DNA of 64,000 bases from an uncultured bacterium. Its GTDB lineage: Bacteria > Eisenbacteria > RBG-16-71-46. Under the pieces are notes generated by a model. The model did no database searches, was not told the DNA's origin, and saw nothing but the letters and a program-made list of their open reading frames with translations. Both the position numbers and the translations under genes were made by a program. Where the stretch lies: positions 13,049 to 77,048 of the forward strand of contig CAYSWZ010000037.1 in NCBI GenBank assembly GCA_964434945.1. Direction: 5' to 3'. Shown piece by piece: positions 13,010 to 34,692 of this stretch (its first letter is position 1; every line of letters begins with the position of its first letter).

Positions 13010-13837
13010 ATGAGCGTCTCGCCCGCTGTCGCGCTCGTGGTCGCGGTCCACCAGCGACCGCGGATCCTCGAACTGGTCCTCCGGAGCCTCGAGAACCAGA
13101 CCTGGACGGACTTCGAGGTGGTGCTGGCCGATGACGGCTCCGACGACGCCGTGCGCGACGTCGTCCGAGCGTGGACCGGACGCTTCCGCCACCCGATCCG
13201 GCACGTGTGGCAGGAGAATCGAGGATTCCGGAAGACCATGATCGTCAACCGCGCGGTCGCGGGTACCGCTGCGACGTACCTCGTGTTCATCGACGGGGAC
13301 TGCATCCTTCACCATCGCTTCGTCGATCGTCACCACGCGCGCCGCCGGCCCCGCCAGGTGCTGTCCGGGCGCCGCGTGATGCTGGACCCGGAGCTCACGG
13401 CCCGCCTCACGCTCGCGGACGTCGAGTCCAGGCGCATCGAGCAACCGACGTTCTGGTGGCGCCATGCCAAGGCGCACGATCGACGCAACGGGATCTACGC
13501 CCCCGCGGCCTACGGCTGGCGTGGCGGCTGGGCCCGCGACTACGCGATCCTCGGCAGCAACTTCTCGCTGTTCCGCGACGACTTCGCGGCGGTGAACGGC
13601 TACGACGAGGCGATCGTCGGGCGCGGCATGGAGGACATCAACCTGCGAACGCGCCTGCTGAACGCCGGCTGCGTCGTCCGCAGCATCTCGCAGGAAGCCC
13701 TCCAGTATCACTGTCACCACGACGCGGCGCCCATGCCGCACGATGCCGAGACGACGGAGCGTTGGCGTTCGACCACCGAGTCGTGGACGCCGCGAGGACT
13801 CGTGAAGGGCGGGCGCGAGGCCGATCCGCGACCGTGA
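13010..13837 (+). CDS. Glycosyltransferase family 2
   Basis: LADDGS, GFRK, FIDGDC, GSNFS, NGYDE, GMED. Confidence 0.85.
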   Translation: MSVSPAVALVVAVHQRPRILELVLRSLENQTWTDFEVVLADDGSDDAVRDVVRAWTGRFRHPIRHVWQENRGFRKTMIVNRAVAGTAATYLVFIDGDCILHHRFVDRHHARRRPRQVLSGRRVMLDPELTARLTLADVESRRIEQPTFWWRHAKAHDRRNGIYAPAAYGWRGGWARDYAILGSNFSLFRDDFAAVNGYDEAIVGRGMEDINLRTRLLNAGCVVRSISQEALQYHCHHDAAPMPHDAETTERWRSTTESWTPRGLVKGGREADPRP

Positions 13838-28989: not shown

Positions 28990-30149
28990 AGCAGACGACC
29001 CCGTCCCCGCCAGAGTCGCGGAAAGACCGCGAATGCGCGCAGGCGTCCCGGGCGCCAGGCCGCCGACAGGAGTTCGAACGCGAGCCAGCCGCCGTAGGCC
29101 CAGCACATGGCCCCGCGCGAGTCCGGCACCGCGAACTGCACGCCCCAGAACAACAGCAGCCCGAGCGCTTCGTACGCGTGGAAGACGAAGTTCGCGAGCA
29201 GCACCACGCCGAGCGCACCCTGCAGGAGCGTCAGCAGCACCTCGGTGCGATGCGGCCCGAGCGGCACGCTGGTCGGGGCCCCGATCGACCACGAGTACAC
29301 GATCGGGATCATCGCCGCGAGCACCGTCCACTGGTTGATGTTGCTCGAGGCCATGTTCATGAGCGCCATGCCGCCCTTGCCCCGGCTGCGCGCCCAGTAG
29401 GACGTGGTGACGAACTCGGGAAACTCCGACAGGAACGGCGCCACCCACTGGACGAACACGAACTGCGAGACGCCGGCGACGGTCGCGAGCCCGATCATGC
29501 TCTTCAGGAACGGATGCGCAGTGAGATAGAGCATGGCGCCGCCGACCAGGAACAGTCCCACCACGCTGAGCGGCCGCCAGGGCGAGGGCAGCGCCATCAC
29601 CGCGCGCGGGACGGCGCCGGCATCCTCGACCTCCTCGTGTTCCTTGGGTGGGATGCGCTGCAGCACCCAGAGATAGGCCGCGTAGATGCAGAGCAGCACA
29701 CCGGAATCCACGAGCCCGAGCGTGCCCTTCCACACGATCCACGCGAAGTAGACGAGCGCCGGGGTCAGTCCCACGATCTCGACGGCGTGCTCGGGGTCGA
29801 GCGCGATCGGCCGCCACAACTGCTCCTCGCCGCGCCCGCGCCGCGCGATCACGCTCACCACCCAGATCGCGGGCCAGCCGAGCCCGGTGAGGAGCCGCAG
29901 CGCACCGGTGAAATTGGCGGTCATGAGCGGCACGTTCTGGTGCCACGCGATCACCGCTTCGACCGCGAACTCGGGCAGGACCTGGATCCACGCCAGCAGC
30001 GCCAGGGCGAGGCCCTGGGAAATGTAGAACTGGGCGCACTCCGCGCCCCACGCGACGACGAACGACGACAGCAGGATGGTGGGGAACGTCCACAACGCCG
30101 AGTGCGCCACGCGGCGCACTTCCTCGGGCGGGAGATCGCTGCCGATCAT
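28986..30149 (-). CDS. Na+/Ca2+ exchanger-like cation antiporter
   Basis: Two alpha-repeat-like motifs (VLPEFAV...ANFTG; SEFPEF...ASSNINQ); about 10 TM segments. Confidence 0.7.
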   Translation of the reverse strand: MIGSDLPPEEVRRVAHSALWTFPTILLSSFVVAWGAECAQFYISQGLALALLAWIQVLPEFAVEAVIAWHQNVPLMTANFTGALRLLTGLGWPAIWVVSVIARRGRGEEQLWRPIALDPEHAVEIVGLTPALVYFAWIVWKGTLGLVDSGVLLCIYAAYLWVLQRIPPKEHEEVEDAGAVPRAVMALPSPWRPLSVVGLFLVGGAMLYLTAHPFLKSMIGLATVAGVSQFVFVQWVAPFLSEFPEFVTTSYWARSRGKGGMALMNMASSNINQWTVLAAMIPIVYSWSIGAPTSVPLGPHRTEVLLTLLQGALGVVLLANFVFHAYEALGLLLFWGVQFAVPDSRGAMCWAYGGWLAFELLSAAWRPGRLRAFAVFPRLWRGRGRLL

Positions 30150-30224
30150 GAGTCCCTTCGGAGGGCTGGGAGGTGCGCGCGCGGCTTGCGGGCGCAGTCG
30201 ACGAGCCGATACTGTCCCGCGTCC

Positions 30225-30902
30225 ATGACAGCGTCAAGAACACGCCGCCCGGTCCGCGTGCGCGTCGCTCGGACGCGACCGCTCGCCGCCGGCACGCGCG
30301 CCCTGTGCGCATTCGCGGCCGCGATGACGCGCGGGAACGAGCCCGAGGCCCGGGTCGCGCTGGCTGCAGCGCGCACCGCGGGTGTGCGCCGCAGGGCGGC
30401 GGAGGAGACGGCGCTCATGCTCATGTTGTACGCCGGGTATCCGAGCGCGCTCGAGAGCCTGCGCGTGCTGAACACGGCGTGGCCGGGCCGCGCACTCCGG
30501 ACGCGCGAGGGCGGGACGGCGCGCTGGCGGGCGCGCGGCGAGGCGTTGTGCCGCGAGGTCTACGGCACCGCATACGGCAAGCTCCTGCCGGCGGTGCGTG
30601 CGCTGCATCCCGATCTCGCGGTGTGGATGGTGGAGCACGGCTATGGCCGCGTGCTGGCGCGGAAGGGTCTCGCCGTCGTCGAGCGCGAACTCGTCACCGT
30701 TGCCGCGCTGGCGTCGCTGGGCTGGGAGCGCCAGCTGGTGAGCCACGTGCTCGGGGCCCTGAGGGTGGGCGCGGGTGAGGTCGCGACGCACGCCGCGCTC
30801 GAGGTGGGGGCGGGCCTCGCCGACGCGCGCGGCCGAGGCATCGCGTCGCGCACGTGGCGGCGCGCGGTCCGGGCGAACGCCGCGCTCGGCGCCGGCCGCT
30901 GA
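30225..30902 (+). CDS. Carboxymuconolactone decarboxylase/AhpD-like protein (tandem CMD domains)
   Basis: EETALMLMLYAGYP, YGRVLAR...ERELVTVAALA...SHVLGALRVG. No CxxC. Confidence 0.75.
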   Translation: MTASRTRRPVRVRVARTRPLAAGTRALCAFAAAMTRGNEPEARVALAAARTAGVRRRAAEETALMLMLYAGYPSALESLRVLNTAWPGRALRTREGGTARWRARGEALCREVYGTAYGKLLPAVRALHPDLAVWMVEHGYGRVLARKGLAVVERELVTVAALASLGWERQLVSHVLGALRVGAGEVATHAALEVGAGLADARGRGIASRTWRRAVRANAALGAGR

Positions 30903-30966
30903 GGCGGGAGATCGCCGGAGCCCGTTTCGAGCCGCCCGGCCGCTTCGCGCATCCAAACCGGGCACT

Positions 30967-30996
30967 TTGACCGTCCGCTCCCCGGCCCACTAGGAT
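30967..30996 (+). promoter_or_regulatory. Putative sigma70 promoter of the bsh operon
   Basis: TTGACC-N18-TAGGAT in the short gap before bshC. Confidence 0.5.
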
Positions 30997-31006
30997 GTCC
31001 GCTCGC

Positions 31007-31075
31007 ATGTCCCTGTCCTGCCGTGACTTCCACCATCGGTGCCATCCGACCTGCCGGTCGGGGCGATGTCGGTGA
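31007..31075 (+). CDS. Candidate Cys-rich leader peptide (MSLSCRDFHHRCHPTCRSGRCR)
   Basis: ATG 10 nt after the -10 box. 4 Cys codons in 22. Its TGA overlaps an in-frame GTG of bshC (GTGA). Not in the ORF track because it is short. Confidence 0.35.
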   Translation: MSLSCRDFHHRCHPTCRSGRCR

Positions 31076-32685
31076 CCCCGCGCGTGCTCGCCGTTCGCGC
31101 ACGGGTCGCGGCCACCGCCAACCGCGGCCCCCTGGGCGACACGCTCTCGCTCGACCTCCTGGCGGGCGGCCCCATCGCGCGCGAGCGCGTGCCCGTCCAG
31201 TGGCGGGACACCGCGCGGCTCCGTGCGCTCGCCGAGGCGAAGCGGGCGCCGCTTCCGGCCGCACTCGCGGGCGAGCTCACGGCCTACCACCGCCGACTCG
31301 GCGCCTCGCCCGCGTCGCTCGCCAACCTTGCGCGGCTCGCCCGCGGTGACGCGGTCGCGACCGTCGCGGGTCAACAGCCCGCACCGCTCGGTGGACCGCT
31401 CTACTCGCTCCACAAGACGGCCGGCGCGGTAGGGATGGCGGCGGACGTTTCGCGGCGCACGGGGGCCGCGTGCGTGCCGCTCTTCTGGATGCACGGCGAG
31501 GACTCCGATTTCGCCGAGATCCGCGGCGTGACCGTGGCGGACATGGAGCTGATGCTGCACGAGTCGCAGCTGCCGGACGACGCGCACTCGGACGGAGAGC
31601 TGGTGGGCGGGATCCGACTCGACGCCGTGCGCGAGACGGGAGCGCGGGCGATCGAGAAGTGGCGCGGGCTGCCCGGCCATGCCGGCGTGCAGGCGCTGTG
31701 GACCCGCTCGCTCGCGCAGGCGCAGGACCTGGGCGAGGCGATGAGCGCGCTCTGGCTCACGCTGTTCGCCGAGCAGGGCCTGGTGGTGGTGGATCCGCGG
31801 CTCCCCGCGTTCCGCGCCGCGGCACGGCCCATCGTCGAGCGCTACCTCGCGGGTGCGGACGGACTTCACGCCGCCGCGCGCGCCGCGGGCGCGCGCATGG
31901 AAGCGCTCACCGGCCGGCGCGCGCTCGCCGATGCGGCGCTCGACTCGTTCGTGTTCGAGGTGCGCGACGGCCGCCGCTACAAAGTCTCGGCGGCCGATGC
32001 GCTCGCGCGCGGCGCGTCGGCGGTGCTCTCCCCGAGCGTGGCGCTGCGGGCCGCCGTCCAGGATGGCGTGTTCCCGACCGTGGCCATGGCCTGCGGGCCC
32101 GGCGAGATCGCGTACCTGATGCAGCTCACGGAAGTGTTCGCGGGCGTGGGCGTGAAGCAGGCCGCGCCGGCGCTCCGCTTCGGGGCCACCTGGCTGCCTC
32201 CGGCGGCGGTCGCGCTGGCGGACGCCGCCGGGGGCGATGCGTGGGACGTGGTGACCCACACCGATGCCGTACTGGCGCGCGTCGCGGAGACGCGCGTCCC
32301 GACCGAGTTGCAGCAGGCGCTCGCCGCGGCGCGCGCCGCGGTGGACCAGTCCCTGGCGCGGCTCGCGGACGCCTCGCGCCCGTTCGATGCGAGCCTGCCG
32401 CAGATGGTCGAATCGGCGCGCGGGAAGATGGACTTCCAGGTGTCGCGGCTCGCCGAGGGCGTGCTCGGGAAGGCGCGCGGCCAGCTGGACCGCGAGCAGC
32501 CGCTGTGGCGCCGATTGCGCTACGTGCTGCTGCCGGGTGACAAGCTTCAGGAGCGCCGCCTCGCGTCGCTCGAGCCCGTGGCCCGCCTCGGGACGGGCGT
32601 GGTGACGGAACTGTGCGATCTCGCCGCCGAGCACGCGGCTCGAACGGCGGATGGCGTGCACGAACATCACCTGCTGGAGGCCTGA
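31066..32685 (+). CDS. bshC: Bacillithiol biosynthesis cysteine-adding enzyme BshC
   Basis: AGQQP...GGPLYSLHK, PLFWMHGEDSDFAEI, GPGEIAY, LQER. Start uncertain (GTG 31039, ATG 31066 or GTG 31072). Confidence 0.85.
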   Translation: MSVTPRVLAVRARVAATANRGPLGDTLSLDLLAGGPIARERVPVQWRDTARLRALAEAKRAPLPAALAGELTAYHRRLGASPASLANLARLARGDAVATVAGQQPAPLGGPLYSLHKTAGAVGMAADVSRRTGAACVPLFWMHGEDSDFAEIRGVTVADMELMLHESQLPDDAHSDGELVGGIRLDAVRETGARAIEKWRGLPGHAGVQALWTRSLAQAQDLGEAMSALWLTLFAEQGLVVVDPRLPAFRAAARPIVERYLAGADGLHAAARAAGARMEALTGRRALADAALDSFVFEVRDGRRYKVSAADALARGASAVLSPSVALRAAVQDGVFPTVAMACGPGEIAYLMQLTEVFAGVGVKQAAPALRFGATWLPPAAVALADAAGGDAWDVVTHTDAVLARVAETRVPTELQQALAAARAAVDQSLARLADASRPFDASLPQMVESARGKMDFQVSRLAEGVLGKARGQLDREQPLWRRLRYVLLPGDKLQERRLASLEPVARLGTGVVTELCDLAAEHAARTADGVHEHHLLEA

Positions 32686-32763
32686 TGCCGCTCGTGATGG
32701 CGTGCGCGTGATGGCACGCACGAGAGGTCGCTCGTGACTGCACGCTCGAGAACCGACCGGTGA
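32682..32763 (+). repeat. Degenerate 26-nt tandem repeat forming three stop/start-coupled mini-ORFs
   Basis: TGA at 32683, 32709, 32735 and 32761. Units 2 and 3 share GTGA-nn-GCACGC-n-CGAGA (16/26 identical). Confidence 0.55.
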
Positions 32764-33485
32764 CTCCACTCGACGCGCTGTGCTTCGGGGCGCATCCGGA
32801 CGACGTCGAGCTCACGTCGGGCGGGCTTGCCGCGCGGCTCGCGGCGCACGGGCACGCGGTCGGGATCGTCGACCTCACGCGCGGCGAGCTCGGCACGCGG
32901 GGTGACGTGGCCACGCGCGCGCGCGAGGCCGAGGCCGCGGCGCAGGCGCTCGGTGTTGCGGCGCGCATGACCCTCGCGCTGCCGGACGGCGGGCTCGACC
33001 GCCGCGACCCGGCCCAGATGAAGACGGTGGTCGAGTGCCTGCGCGAGCACCGCCCGCGGCTGGTGATCGCCCCCGACCGCCACGACGAGCACCCGGACCA
33101 CGTCGAGGCCTCCCACCTCGTGGCGCGCGCGTGCTACCTCGCCGGCCTCGCGCGCTACCCGGCCGCGGGCGAGCGCTTCCGCCCCGGCCGGCTGCTGTTC
33201 GCGCTCTATCGCTCGGGCACGGCGCCGCACCTGGTCGTGGACGTGAGTGCGGTGTGGCCGCGGCGCGTGGCGGCGCTCCGCGCGCACGCGAGCCAGTTGG
33301 ATCCGGGGGCCGGGCCGGGCACGTACCTCACCGCCGCCGGATTCGTGGAATCGGTCGAGGCGCGCGCGCGCGCATGGGGCGCACTGGCGGGGGTGGAGTA
33401 CGCCGAGGGCTATCGCGTGCGCGGACCCCTGCCCGTCCTCGATGCGCGCACGCTGCTCGCCGCACGCGGGAGCGACCATGGTTGA
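32760..33485 (+). CDS. bshB1: N-acetylglucosaminyl-malate deacetylase BshB1
   Basis: GAHPDDVEL, DLTRGELGTRG, DRHDEHPDH, YAEG (PIG-L family). Lies between bshC and bshA. Confidence 0.88.
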   Translation: MTPLDALCFGAHPDDVELTSGGLAARLAAHGHAVGIVDLTRGELGTRGDVATRAREAEAAAQALGVAARMTLALPDGGLDRRDPAQMKTVVECLREHRPRLVIAPDRHDEHPDHVEASHLVARACYLAGLARYPAAGERFRPGRLLFALYRSGTAPHLVVDVSAVWPRRVAALRAHASQLDPGAGPGTYLTAAGFVESVEARARAWGALAGVEYAEGYRVRGPLPVLDARTLLAARGSDHG

Positions 33486-34692
33486 GCGGAAGCCGGCGCG
33501 ATCGCGCACCGAGTCCCGGCCGCGGCGCCCCGCCGCCGCGGGGAGGGTCGCGCCCCCGGCACGCGGCCGGGCCGGCAAGAAGCTCAAGATCGGCATCAGC
33601 TGCTACGCGCACTTCGGCGGCAGCGGCGTGGTGGCGTCCGAGCTCGGGCGCGAGCTGGCGCGGCGCGGTCACGAGGTCCACCTCATCGCCAGCCACCTGC
33701 CGTTTCGGTTGCGGAGCTTCGAGCCCAACATCTTCTTTCACGAGGCGACGCCGGCCGCCTACCCGGTGTTCGAGGAGGCGCCGAGCAACCTCGCGCTCGC
33801 CACCAAGATGGTCGAGGTGACCGAGAACTACATGCTGGACGTGCTGCACGTGCACTACGCGATGCCGTTCGCGACCAGCGCCTACCTGGCGAAGCAGATC
33901 ATGCTGCCGCGCGCGCTCGGCGTGGTCACGACGCTTCACGGCACGGACATCACCGTGCTCGGCGCGGAGCCCTCGTTCTTCCGGATCACCCAGTTCAGCA
34001 TGCAGTCCAGCGACCGGCTGACCGCCGTGTCCCGCTTCCTCAAGGAGCGCGCCGAGGCCACGTTCGGGTTCACCCGGCCGATCGAGGTGATCTACAACTT
34101 CGTGGATCCGCACGTCTTCGCACCCAAGCGCGACAGCCGCATCCGCCTCGCGGCCCCTGGGACGAAGGTCCTCATGCATGCTTCCAACTTTCGTCCGGTC
34201 AAGAACATACCGGTCGTTATTCAAGTATTTGCCGAAGTTCGGAAGCAGCTTCAGGCCAAGCTGGTGATGGTCGGGGACGGTCCGGAGAAGGCGGCCTCGG
34301 AGCAGCTCGCCCGCGAACTGGGGGTGCACCGGGACGTTCTCTTCCTCGGAAACCAGGACTGCATGGAGGAAATGCTGCCACTTGCCGATGTATTCCTCCT
34401 GCCGAGCTCCTCCGAGAGCTTCGGCCTCGTGGCGCTTGAAGCCATGAGTGCCGAGGTGCCGGTCGTCTGCTCCAATGCGGGTGGCCTGCCGGAGGTGGTC
34501 GAGCACGGGTTCACGGGTTTCCTGCACGAGCCGGCCCACGTGGCCGGCTACACGGCGTCGGTGCTCAAGCTGCTCACGAACGACACGCTCCGGCGTACCA
34601 TGGGCCGCCGTGGGCGGCGGGTGGCGATGGAGCGCTTCAGCGCCGAGGAGATGGTCGAACGTTACGTTAAGGTGTACGAGTCCCTGCGGTGA
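33478..34692 (+). CDS. bshA: N-acetyl-alpha-D-glucosaminyl L-malate synthase BshA
   Basis: IGISCY...GGSGVVASELG, HVHYAMP, TTLHGTDIT, SNFRPVK, ESFGLVALEAM. Confidence 0.92.
   Translation: MVERKPARSRTESRPRRPAAAGRVAPPARGRAGKKLKIGISCYAHFGGSGVVASELGRELARRGHEVHLIASHLPFRLRSFEPNIFFHEATPAAYPVFEEAPSNLALATKMVEVTENYMLDVLHVHYAMPFATSAYLAKQIMLPRALGVVTTLHGTDITVLGAEPSFFRITQFSMQSSDRLTAVSRFLKERAEATFGFTRPIEVIYNFVDPHVFAPKRDSRIRLAAPGTKVLMHASNFRPVKNIPVVIQVFAEVRKQLQAKLVMVGDGPEKAASEQLARELGVHRDVLFLGNQDCMEEMLPLADVFLLPSSSESFGLVALEAMSAEVPVVCSNAGGLPEVVEHGFTGFLHEPAHVAGYTASVLKLLTNDTLRRTMGRRGRRVAMERFSAEEMVERYVKVYESLR

Follow-up and report, generated by a model that had tools for sequence, protein, structure and literature searches.

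The 64,000-nucleotide stretch of Eisenbacteria DNA analysed here (positions 13,049 to 77,048 of contig CAYSWZ010000037.1, hereafter 'the window') carries bshC, the gene for the cysteine-adding enzyme of bacillithiol synthesis, followed by bshB and bshA, and immediately before bshC a 22-codon upstream open reading frame (uORF) whose stop codon overlaps a bshC start codon. Comparison with related loci supports selection across the phylum on the start of this uORF, on its frame and on its stop/start overlap with bshC, and it is very probable that the uORF is translated and passes its ribosomes on to the operon. The fuller reading, which we consider probable, is that of a near-leaderless uORF handing ribosomes on to bshC-bshB-bshA by termination-reinitiation. 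We infer the transcription start, the translation of the uORF, the re-initiation and the dependence of bshC on the uORF from conservation.

A conserved promoter and leader reading frame

The elements of the leader, all on the plus strand, are the following.

30949..30957, +: GCATCCAAA motif upstream of the -35 hexamer, a putative regulator site
30967..30972, +: -35 hexamer TTGACC, by direct reading
30991..30996, +: -10 hexamer TAGGAT, 18 nucleotides after the -35 hexamer and followed by a conserved G
31007..31075, +: uORF of 22 codons and TGA, encoding MSLSCRDFHHRCHPTCRSGRCR, with its ATG 10 nucleotides past the -10 hexamer
31019..31021, +: cysteine codon 5 of the uORF (Cys5; TGC in the window), the sole broadly recurrent cysteine position outside the tail
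31060..31063, +: GGGG, which resembles a Shine-Dalgarno sequence and lies within the uORF, 8 nucleotides before GTG 31072
31066..32685, +: bshC (PF10079, PF24850), starting at ATG 31066 or GTG 31072

An original prediction, made from the letters of the window, had described a promoter, an ATG 10 nucleotides on, a 22-codon frame with four cysteine codons and a GTGA overlap, and direct reading bears this out: the uORF stop codon (TGA, 31073-31075) overlaps a GTG in the bshC frame (31072-31074), forming GTGA at 31072-31075. This promoter was the sole match in a scan of 30000-33500, with 0.0 expected from shuffles, and the pattern TTGACN-N16-19-TANN[AT]T occurs once in the whole window on both strands, at 72% G+C. 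Across 0.52 Mb of Eisenbacteria sequence there are two further TTGACN-N17/18-TANNNT sites, both of them bshC promoters, and no TTGACC-N17/18-TA[G/C]GAT promoter was found there before any gene other than bshC. This scarcity may mean that ordinary Eisenbacteria promoters differ, or that the bshC promoter is exceptionally strong and conserved.

Judged by its BshC homologues, the window belongs to Candidatus Eisenbacteria, and all relatives compared are Eisenbacteria-like. We gathered 45 loci from genomes and 60 from metagenomes, together with the closest relative (P0002, 89% BshC identity; L106/L107); upstream DNA was usable at ~94 loci, spanning 54-100% BshC identity, and clades were drawn at 75% (36 clades) and at 68% BshC identity (17 clades). 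Leader counts refer to 75 non-redundant loci for the -35 hexamer and the start codon, to 66 distinct junctions and to 65 distinct peptides. About 90 related loci (54-89% BshC identity) share the layout of promoter, short open reading frame and stop/start overlap. An automated pass recovered the promoter at nearly every locus. The -35 hexamer is TTGACC in 68 of 75 loci and TTGCCC or ATGCCC in the remainder, the -10 hexamer is TAGGAT, TACGAT or TAAGAT in nearly all, and the spacer measures 17-18 nucleotides. The uORF opens 7-11 nucleotides past the -10 hexamer (exactly 10 in 63 of 83 loci), with ATG at 69 of 75 loci and GTG at the other 6. Aligned from 5' to 3', the nearest 15 loci run from a conserved GCATCCAAA through an invariant TTGACC, a variable spacer of 17-18 nucleotides and CTA[G/C]GATG to a few variable bases and then tCGCATGTCCnTGTCCTGyC, in which the ATG is invariant.

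At the end of the -10 hexamer, its final two bases and the conserved G after them (TAGGATG) spell a second ATG (30995-30997). The uORF frame is formally open from there, and this ATG lies in the uORF frame whenever the distance from the -10 hexamer to the uORF ATG is 10 nucleotides; it sits inside the -10 hexamer and would be relevant only for transcripts that read through from the gene upstream, described below.

The length of the uORF ranges from 15 to 33 codons, with 15 distinct lengths that all keep one single frame relative to bshC (frame 2); this frame is used exclusively in 34 of 36 BshC clades, and frame 1 in none. The 22-codon form of the window, L001, L090 and L106 is separated from the common 18-codon form by a 12-nucleotide insertion or deletion. 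Under neutral insertion and deletion, ~14 successive length changes would all keep the frame with P ~1e-6 by our own estimate, in which the events are assumed independent. At one further locus (L047, 132-340), the same promoter is followed 10 nucleotides on by the ATG of a leader frame of 64 codons, which still ends at about the bshC start.

One clade (L021, L027, L063, L073, L080, L087, L099 and L101) has no separate uORF. Its promoter-proximal ATG lies in the bshC frame and adds a 12-codon N-terminal extension to BshC (MALLTxGDxGRPSEPAR...), and 4 of the 8 loci have CTG in place of the junction GTG. Such decay of the junction start where the upstream ATG is in frame suggests that translation does begin at the promoter-proximal ATG. 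In this clade, bshC itself is apparently the leaderless or near-leaderless first open reading frame.

It could be argued that the leader is not translated at all, the conserved block representing the promoter with its initially transcribed sequence or an operator, and the reading frame being incidental to GC-rich DNA. In favor of this explanation, both CGCATGTCCnTGTCCTG and the first 18 nucleotides of the uORF are conserved as nucleotides, third positions of codons 2-4 and 8 are invariant in the near clade, and substitutions in the uORF lack codon periodicity. The conserved GCATCCAAA motif also hints at a regulator: it is kept 10-14 nucleotides upstream of the -35 hexamer in nearly all loci with BshC identity of at least 66%, is replaced by the variants GCATCGCAA, GCATCGAAA and GCGTCAAGG at variable distance in more distant clades, occurs only once in the window, and may be a candidate regulator binding site of the bsh operon. 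However, an untranslated leader does not account for 15 leader lengths in one frame, for the absence of frame 1 or for the in-frame change of 12 nucleotides, nor for the conservation of the stop/start junction even where the leader sequence can no longer be aligned, and we regard it as very unlikely.

The junction and the start of bshC

Alignment of the regions upstream of bshC, which the original prediction had proposed as a check on the stop/start overlap, recovers NTGA (mostly GTGA, also TTGA and ATGA) in nearly all 66 distinct junctions, such that the uORF stop is a TGA lying on a candidate start codon of bshC. In several loci (e.g. L022, L056, L028, L075, L037 and L054) the junction NTG is the sole possible bshC start. 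The original prediction also held that bshC has no clear Shine-Dalgarno sequence, and here the comparison contradicts it: GGGG at 31060-31063, 8 nucleotides before GTG 31072, is part of a conserved feature. Over 66 loci, purines make up 73-79% of positions -13 to -10 counted from the uORF stop, the flanks are C-rich, and the tetramer reads GGGG, GGGA or GGAG. Shine-Dalgarno-like tetramers lie 10-12 nucleotides before the junction start codon in 36 of these 66 loci, and anywhere between -17 and -5 in 40.

The start chosen by the gene caller, ATG 31066 (giving the 539-residue protein P0001), is also in the bshC frame. The GGGG tract is only 2 nucleotides from ATG 31066, a spacing that suits GTG 31072 and not the ATG, and relatives with CTG or TTG in place of ATG 31066 retain both the junction and the G-tract. 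Because the junction NTG is sometimes the only start available and the Shine-Dalgarno-like tract is spaced for it, the comparison favors GTG 31072 over the annotated ATG, in keeping with the coupled start at GTGA 31072-31075 that had been proposed; ATG 31066, which lies within reach of a terminating ribosome, is a possible alternative start. In relatives, the ATG that gene callers take as the bshC start lies another five codons upstream (MVPGALSVT...), and many BshC N-termini of Eisenbacteria in the databases may be 2-7 residues too long.

Two other arrangements were considered and rejected. A start at GTG 31039, which the original prediction had named as an outcome that would count against it, or more generally a leader that forms an N-terminal extension of BshC, is excluded: the bshC frame has a TGA at 31024 in the window, and only the closest relatives possess GTG 31039. 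Elsewhere this frame is interrupted by stops or has no starts in that region; L003 and L038 offer only 9 open codons and no start codon. A programmed frameshift from the uORF into bshC was also set aside on inspection, as the junction has no slippery heptamer and slippage by -1 on CGG-TGA would be implausible.

We propose that the operon is transcribed from this unusually consensus-like sigma-70 promoter, with a predicted transcript 5' end 0-4 nucleotides before the uORF AUG, and that this AUG would open a translated short reading frame whose peptide is not functional in itself. The ribosome would terminate at the UGA overlapping the bshC start (GUGA), where the G-rich, Shine-Dalgarno-like tract 8 nucleotides upstream, within the uORF, would aid re-initiation on bshC. 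The uORF would thereby form the first link of an unbroken stop/start chain through bshC, three mini-ORFs, bshB and bshA, and since it starts this overlapping chain, bshC output would be tied to ribosome traffic through the leader.

Three considerations weigh against this scheme in its full form. The gap between the -10 hexamer and the ATG is usually 6-7 nucleotides in strictly leaderless mRNAs; because it is longer here, at 10 nucleotides, a leader of 2-4 nucleotides is more likely than a strictly leaderless mRNA, and the mode of initiation is uncertain. With a Shine-Dalgarno-like tract and an unstructured leader, bshC might also initiate independently, in which case the uORF would be neutral or inhibitory. 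Finally, the conservation at the 5' end of the uORF may in part serve transcription or a DNA-binding protein.

Probable selection for translation, and the question of the cysteine codons

By parsimony counts, substitutions in the body of the uORF are spread evenly over the three codon positions (42/43/43), in contrast to the next 20 codons of bshC (26/76/28, p 9e-9). Likewise, the three codon positions of the uORF have a GC content of 0.70/0.71/0.76, a weak third-position periodicity, versus 0.81/0.56/0.90 in bshC. Because substitutions are equal across codon positions and GC content is nearly flat, it appears to be the act of translation that is kept, and not the peptide. Peptides of different clades are unrelated past the first six codons, and even the uORF peptide of the relative with 89% BshC identity differs from that of the window at four residues. 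A functional cysteine-rich peptide of 22 residues, for instance a metal- or redox-active partner of BshC, has some appeal in that BshC may need an as yet unknown cofactor, substrate or protein (PMC5790435) and that a cysteine-containing peptide is encoded directly before it. However, the absence of purifying selection, a length anywhere between 15 and 33 codons (64 in L047) among unrelated sequences, the lack of any cysteine in some peptides and the absence of the peptide from one clade make this explanation extremely unlikely.

When 66 leaders were folded against dinucleotide shuffles, no excess stability was detected (mean z +0.41; window +0.92); z lies between +0.25 and +2.6 in most of the nearest relatives and falls below -2 in only 4.5% of loci. 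An unstructured leader fits an open, ribosome-accessible RNA. A Rut-like, C-rich leader that would bring about Rho-dependent polarity was also considered: the C-G skew is ~+0.15 over the first 45 nucleotides across loci, but the leader of the window stands only at the 87th percentile of 60-nucleotide windows, and our interpretation makes no use of it. No intrinsic terminator was found in 30000-33500, and a permissive Rfam 15 scan of 30500-31500 returned only a sub-threshold miRNA match inside bshC (19.7 bits vs a gathering threshold of 83). The mechanism of the original prediction involved no terminator, and to that extent the absence of both terminator and leader hairpin agrees with it.

These results also bear on an attenuator of the mycobacterial type, in which a ribosome stalled at low cysteine opens a duplex that hides the ribosome-binding site of bshC, and operon expression goes up. 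Such a device has a precedent at cysteine and thiol genes, the mshA operon among them (10.1101/834739), and the general layout, with a predicted 5'-terminal short open reading frame (sORF), is alike. It would nevertheless require a leader structure that is neither conserved nor unusually stable here and, in the known cases, consecutive cysteine codons that the window lacks, while the stop/start overlap and the exposed Shine-Dalgarno-like tract point to positive coupling; we consider it highly improbable.

The remaining question is whether the cysteine codons themselves carry meaning. The uORF in the window has four, at 31019, 31040, 31052 and 31067 (codons 5, 12, 16 and 21), and is alone in having at least 4 among the 59 ATG-initiated frames of 15-33 codons in the window. 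Across the 65 distinct peptides, cysteine codons (TGY, where Y is a pyrimidine) number 127 in frame vs 36 and 21 in the other two phases. The excess holds with one representative per clade (66.8 vs 18.7 and 9.7 for 36 clades) and at 17 clades (28.2 vs 8.9 and 6.2, p 2e-5). Cysteine makes up 8.7% of residues in the related uORFs vs a mean of 3.5% in the other short frames of the window, and ~90% of uORFs have at least one, with none in 6 of 65 and one in 22 of 65. Taken over the whole uORF, however, this enrichment does not serve as proof of sensing, as it splits into three parts: Cys5, by-products of NTG codons in the bshC frame, and a middle at background.

Cys5 lies inside the conserved 5' block M-x-x-[S/P]-C-R, whose codons 4 and 6 are equally conserved. 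It is present in 28 of 65 distinct peptides and in about half of the clades, encoded by the rare codon TGT in 22 and by TGC in 6; Arg, His, Leu or Ser have repeatedly replaced it, and its loss is not compensated. In the tail (the last eight codons) cysteine reaches 12-13%, and each TGY there arises where an NTG codon in the bshC frame has a pyrimidine after it. Many of these are ATG (6% of codons), that is, candidate bshC starts. Three of the four cysteine codons in the window have this origin: codon 12 is GTG 31039 plus C, codon 16 is CTG 31051 plus C, and codon 21 is ATG 31066 plus T. After a tail NTG, a pyrimidine is modestly preferred over G (74% observed vs 54% expected). Mid-ORF cysteine amounts to 2.9-4.2%, no more than the 5.3% that bshC coding DNA gives when read in this shifted frame, and its enrichment is not significant at 17 clades (p 0.45). 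The original prediction had itself cautioned that off-frame reading of GC-rich DNA yields cysteine by chance, which describes the middle of the uORF well, and that the cysteine codons are not consecutive, as their positions in the window show. Pairs of adjacent cysteine codons do occur in 7 of the 65 related peptides, and all four cysteine codons of the window are retained in the closest relative, L106.

The interpretation that the original prediction placed on these codons is that of a cysteine gauge, whereby scarce Cys-tRNA(Cys) would stall ribosomes in the uORF, leave the GUGA junction unreached or, as we would add, blocked, and lower the output of the bacillithiol pathway. In support of this interpretation are the in-frame enrichment of TGY, which also holds by clade, the recurrence of Cys5 in about half of the clades as the rest of the peptide drifts, the preference for a pyrimidine after tail NTG codons, the adjacent pairs, and the persistence of all four codons in L106. 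There is also a functional fit, as BshC adds cysteine and the mycobacterial mshA operon has a polycysteine leaderless sORF (10.1101/834739). Against it stand the background level of cysteine in mid-ORF, the origin of tail cysteines as by-products of ATG, GTG, TTG and CTG in the bshC frame, and the equal conservation of codons 4 and 6, by which the 5' block is perhaps constrained for other reasons. Furthermore, six uORFs lack cysteine and 22 have one, the loss of Cys5 is uncompensated, one whole clade has no separate uORF, and the cysteine codons of the window are not consecutive. BshC itself also has cysteine codons (0.8%), so a stall sensor in the leader would add little unless early stalling had extra effects, such as a stall at codon 5 that blocks further ribosome loading, which is an inference of our own. 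On this evidence, a cysteine gauge seems unlikely.

What stands of the original prediction, then, is the uORF, its frame and its stop/start overlap, all conserved, and the lack of a terminator; the selection of cysteine codons as a sensing feature is not established. Conservation of those codons across relatives, one of its proposed checks, gives a partial answer, with Cys5 kept in about half of the clades, the middle at background and six uORFs without any. Were the two ideas to be combined, the uORF would be both the entry gate of the translational relay and a gauge of Cys-tRNA(Cys), forming a structure-free attenuator based on coupling and with inverted logic, which would close down a cysteine-consuming thiol pathway at low cysteine, and in which Cys5 sits at the ribosome loading site and the tail cysteines over the Shine-Dalgarno-like tract and start codon. 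We offer this combined scheme only tentatively and think it doubtful.

The bsh operon and comparison with known systems

The bshC product matches PF10079 (4e-48, 165 bits) and PF24850 (3e-8, 34 bits), both above cut-off; the match to TIGR03998 (3e-75, 254.1 bits) is slightly under the equivalog cut-off of 265.8. Homologues of 539 residues span the whole query, and the protein shows the Rossmann-like BshC domain and C-terminal coiled coil of its class, in the expected context of bshA and bshB. The features downstream of bshC are the following.

32685..32763, +: three mini-ORFs (8, 9 and 9 codons) in relay across the 74-nucleotide gap between bshC and bshB
32760..33485, +: bshB, a PIG-L family deacetylase (PF02585, 7e-27), found after bshC in 65 loci
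33478..34692, +: bshA, a glycosyltransferase (TIGR03999, 1e-145), conserved in 53 loci

The relay begins where the bshC stop meets the first mini-ORF (TGA/ATG 32685) and continues through a TGA at 32709-11 on GTG 32708 and a TGA at 32735-37 on GTG 32734, ending with a TGA at 32761-63 on the bshB GTG at 32760. The bshA ATG in turn overlaps the bshB stop (ATGGTTGA, 33478-33485), with GGGAG 6 nucleotides upstream. Direct overlap of bshC and bshB is found in 42 of 55 other loci; the sub-clade of the window carries an insertion of 48-74 nucleotides that is bridged by two or three mini-ORFs of 8-10 codons, linked via GTGA or TGATG. Intact relays are present in the closest gap-bearing relatives, L106/L107 (9+9 codons) and L001 (8+10), and a relay survives in 3.7% of trials in which the gap is dinucleotide-shuffled. 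The bsh promoter is preceded (~30200-30902) by a gene of the carboxymuconolactone decarboxylase/AhpD-like family (PF02627), which occupies the same position in 16 related loci and is possibly a redox-related neighbour of the bacillithiol operon.

To our knowledge, almost nothing is known of the control of bacillithiol synthesis outside Firmicutes, and nothing for Eisenbacteria, an uncultured phylum of soil and sediment. Our literature search found no paper linking bshC to a uORF and none linking Eisenbacteria to bacillithiol. The comparison made here corrects the likely start of bshC and depicts an operon that appears to be wired as a continuous stop/start chain, with mini-ORFs bridging an insertion. 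In Bacillus subtilis, bsh genes are under Spx-dependent transcriptional control, which is Firmicutes-specific, and bshC lies apart from bshA and bshB with no uORF described (PMC5790435); as of the same 2018 review, the BshC reaction had not been reconstituted in vitro (PMC5790435). Both cases concern bacillithiol genes, but Eisenbacteria has a three-gene operon behind a leader that is predicted to be translated.

The polycysteine leaderless sORFs of mycobacteria (the 'Cys ribulon' of Canestrari et al.) have at least 2 consecutive cysteine codons and include that of the mshA mycothiol operon; in the case studied, Ms5788A, the downstream ribosome-binding site is masked by an RNA duplex, and low cysteine raises expression (10.1101/834739). 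The Eisenbacteria leader is similarly an unannotated, cysteine-bearing sORF, predicted to be 5'-terminal, before a cysteine or thiol operon, with a peptide that is otherwise poorly conserved. Of the features that mark the mycobacterial attenuators, the window has the location before cysteine-related genes (bshC-bshB-bshA), and neither consecutive cysteine codons nor a duplex hiding the ribosome-binding site was found in it. The Eisenbacteria leader differs in its scattered cysteines, its lack of structure and the overlap of its stop with the bshC start, and the opposite sign would be expected of it. Should the cysteine codons matter after all, ribosome-based cysteine sensing, as in the mycothiol and cysteine operons of mycobacteria, would extend to a second thiol system, and the sensor there would differ from the mycobacterial one in both mechanism and sign.

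Classical leader-peptide transcription attenuators include trpL, hisL and the predicted cysteine leaders of actinobacteria. As in trpL/hisL-type attenuators, the leader here is a short open reading frame in which codons for the amino acid of the pathway would be the one coding feature to recur. Unlike them, it has neither terminator/antiterminator hairpins nor a run of regulatory codons, and the pathway it precedes uses up the amino acid instead of producing it.

Coupling of a uORF to its main reading frame by termination-reinitiation is a known kind of mechanism (e.g. PMC13285730), and it is the closest to what we propose. The arrangement predicted from the Eisenbacteria alignments resembles known coupled uORFs in that the uORF stop overlaps the main start, that the main reading frame would be tied to translation of the uORF, and that no terminator or riboswitch is involved. 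It differs in that the Eisenbacteria uORF lacks a Shine-Dalgarno sequence for its own start and begins 0-4 nucleotides from the predicted 5' end, and in that it is conserved phylum-wide before one specific operon. If correct, this would make the bshC leader a clean example, across a phylum, of a leader reading frame kept for the act of translation and not for its peptide.

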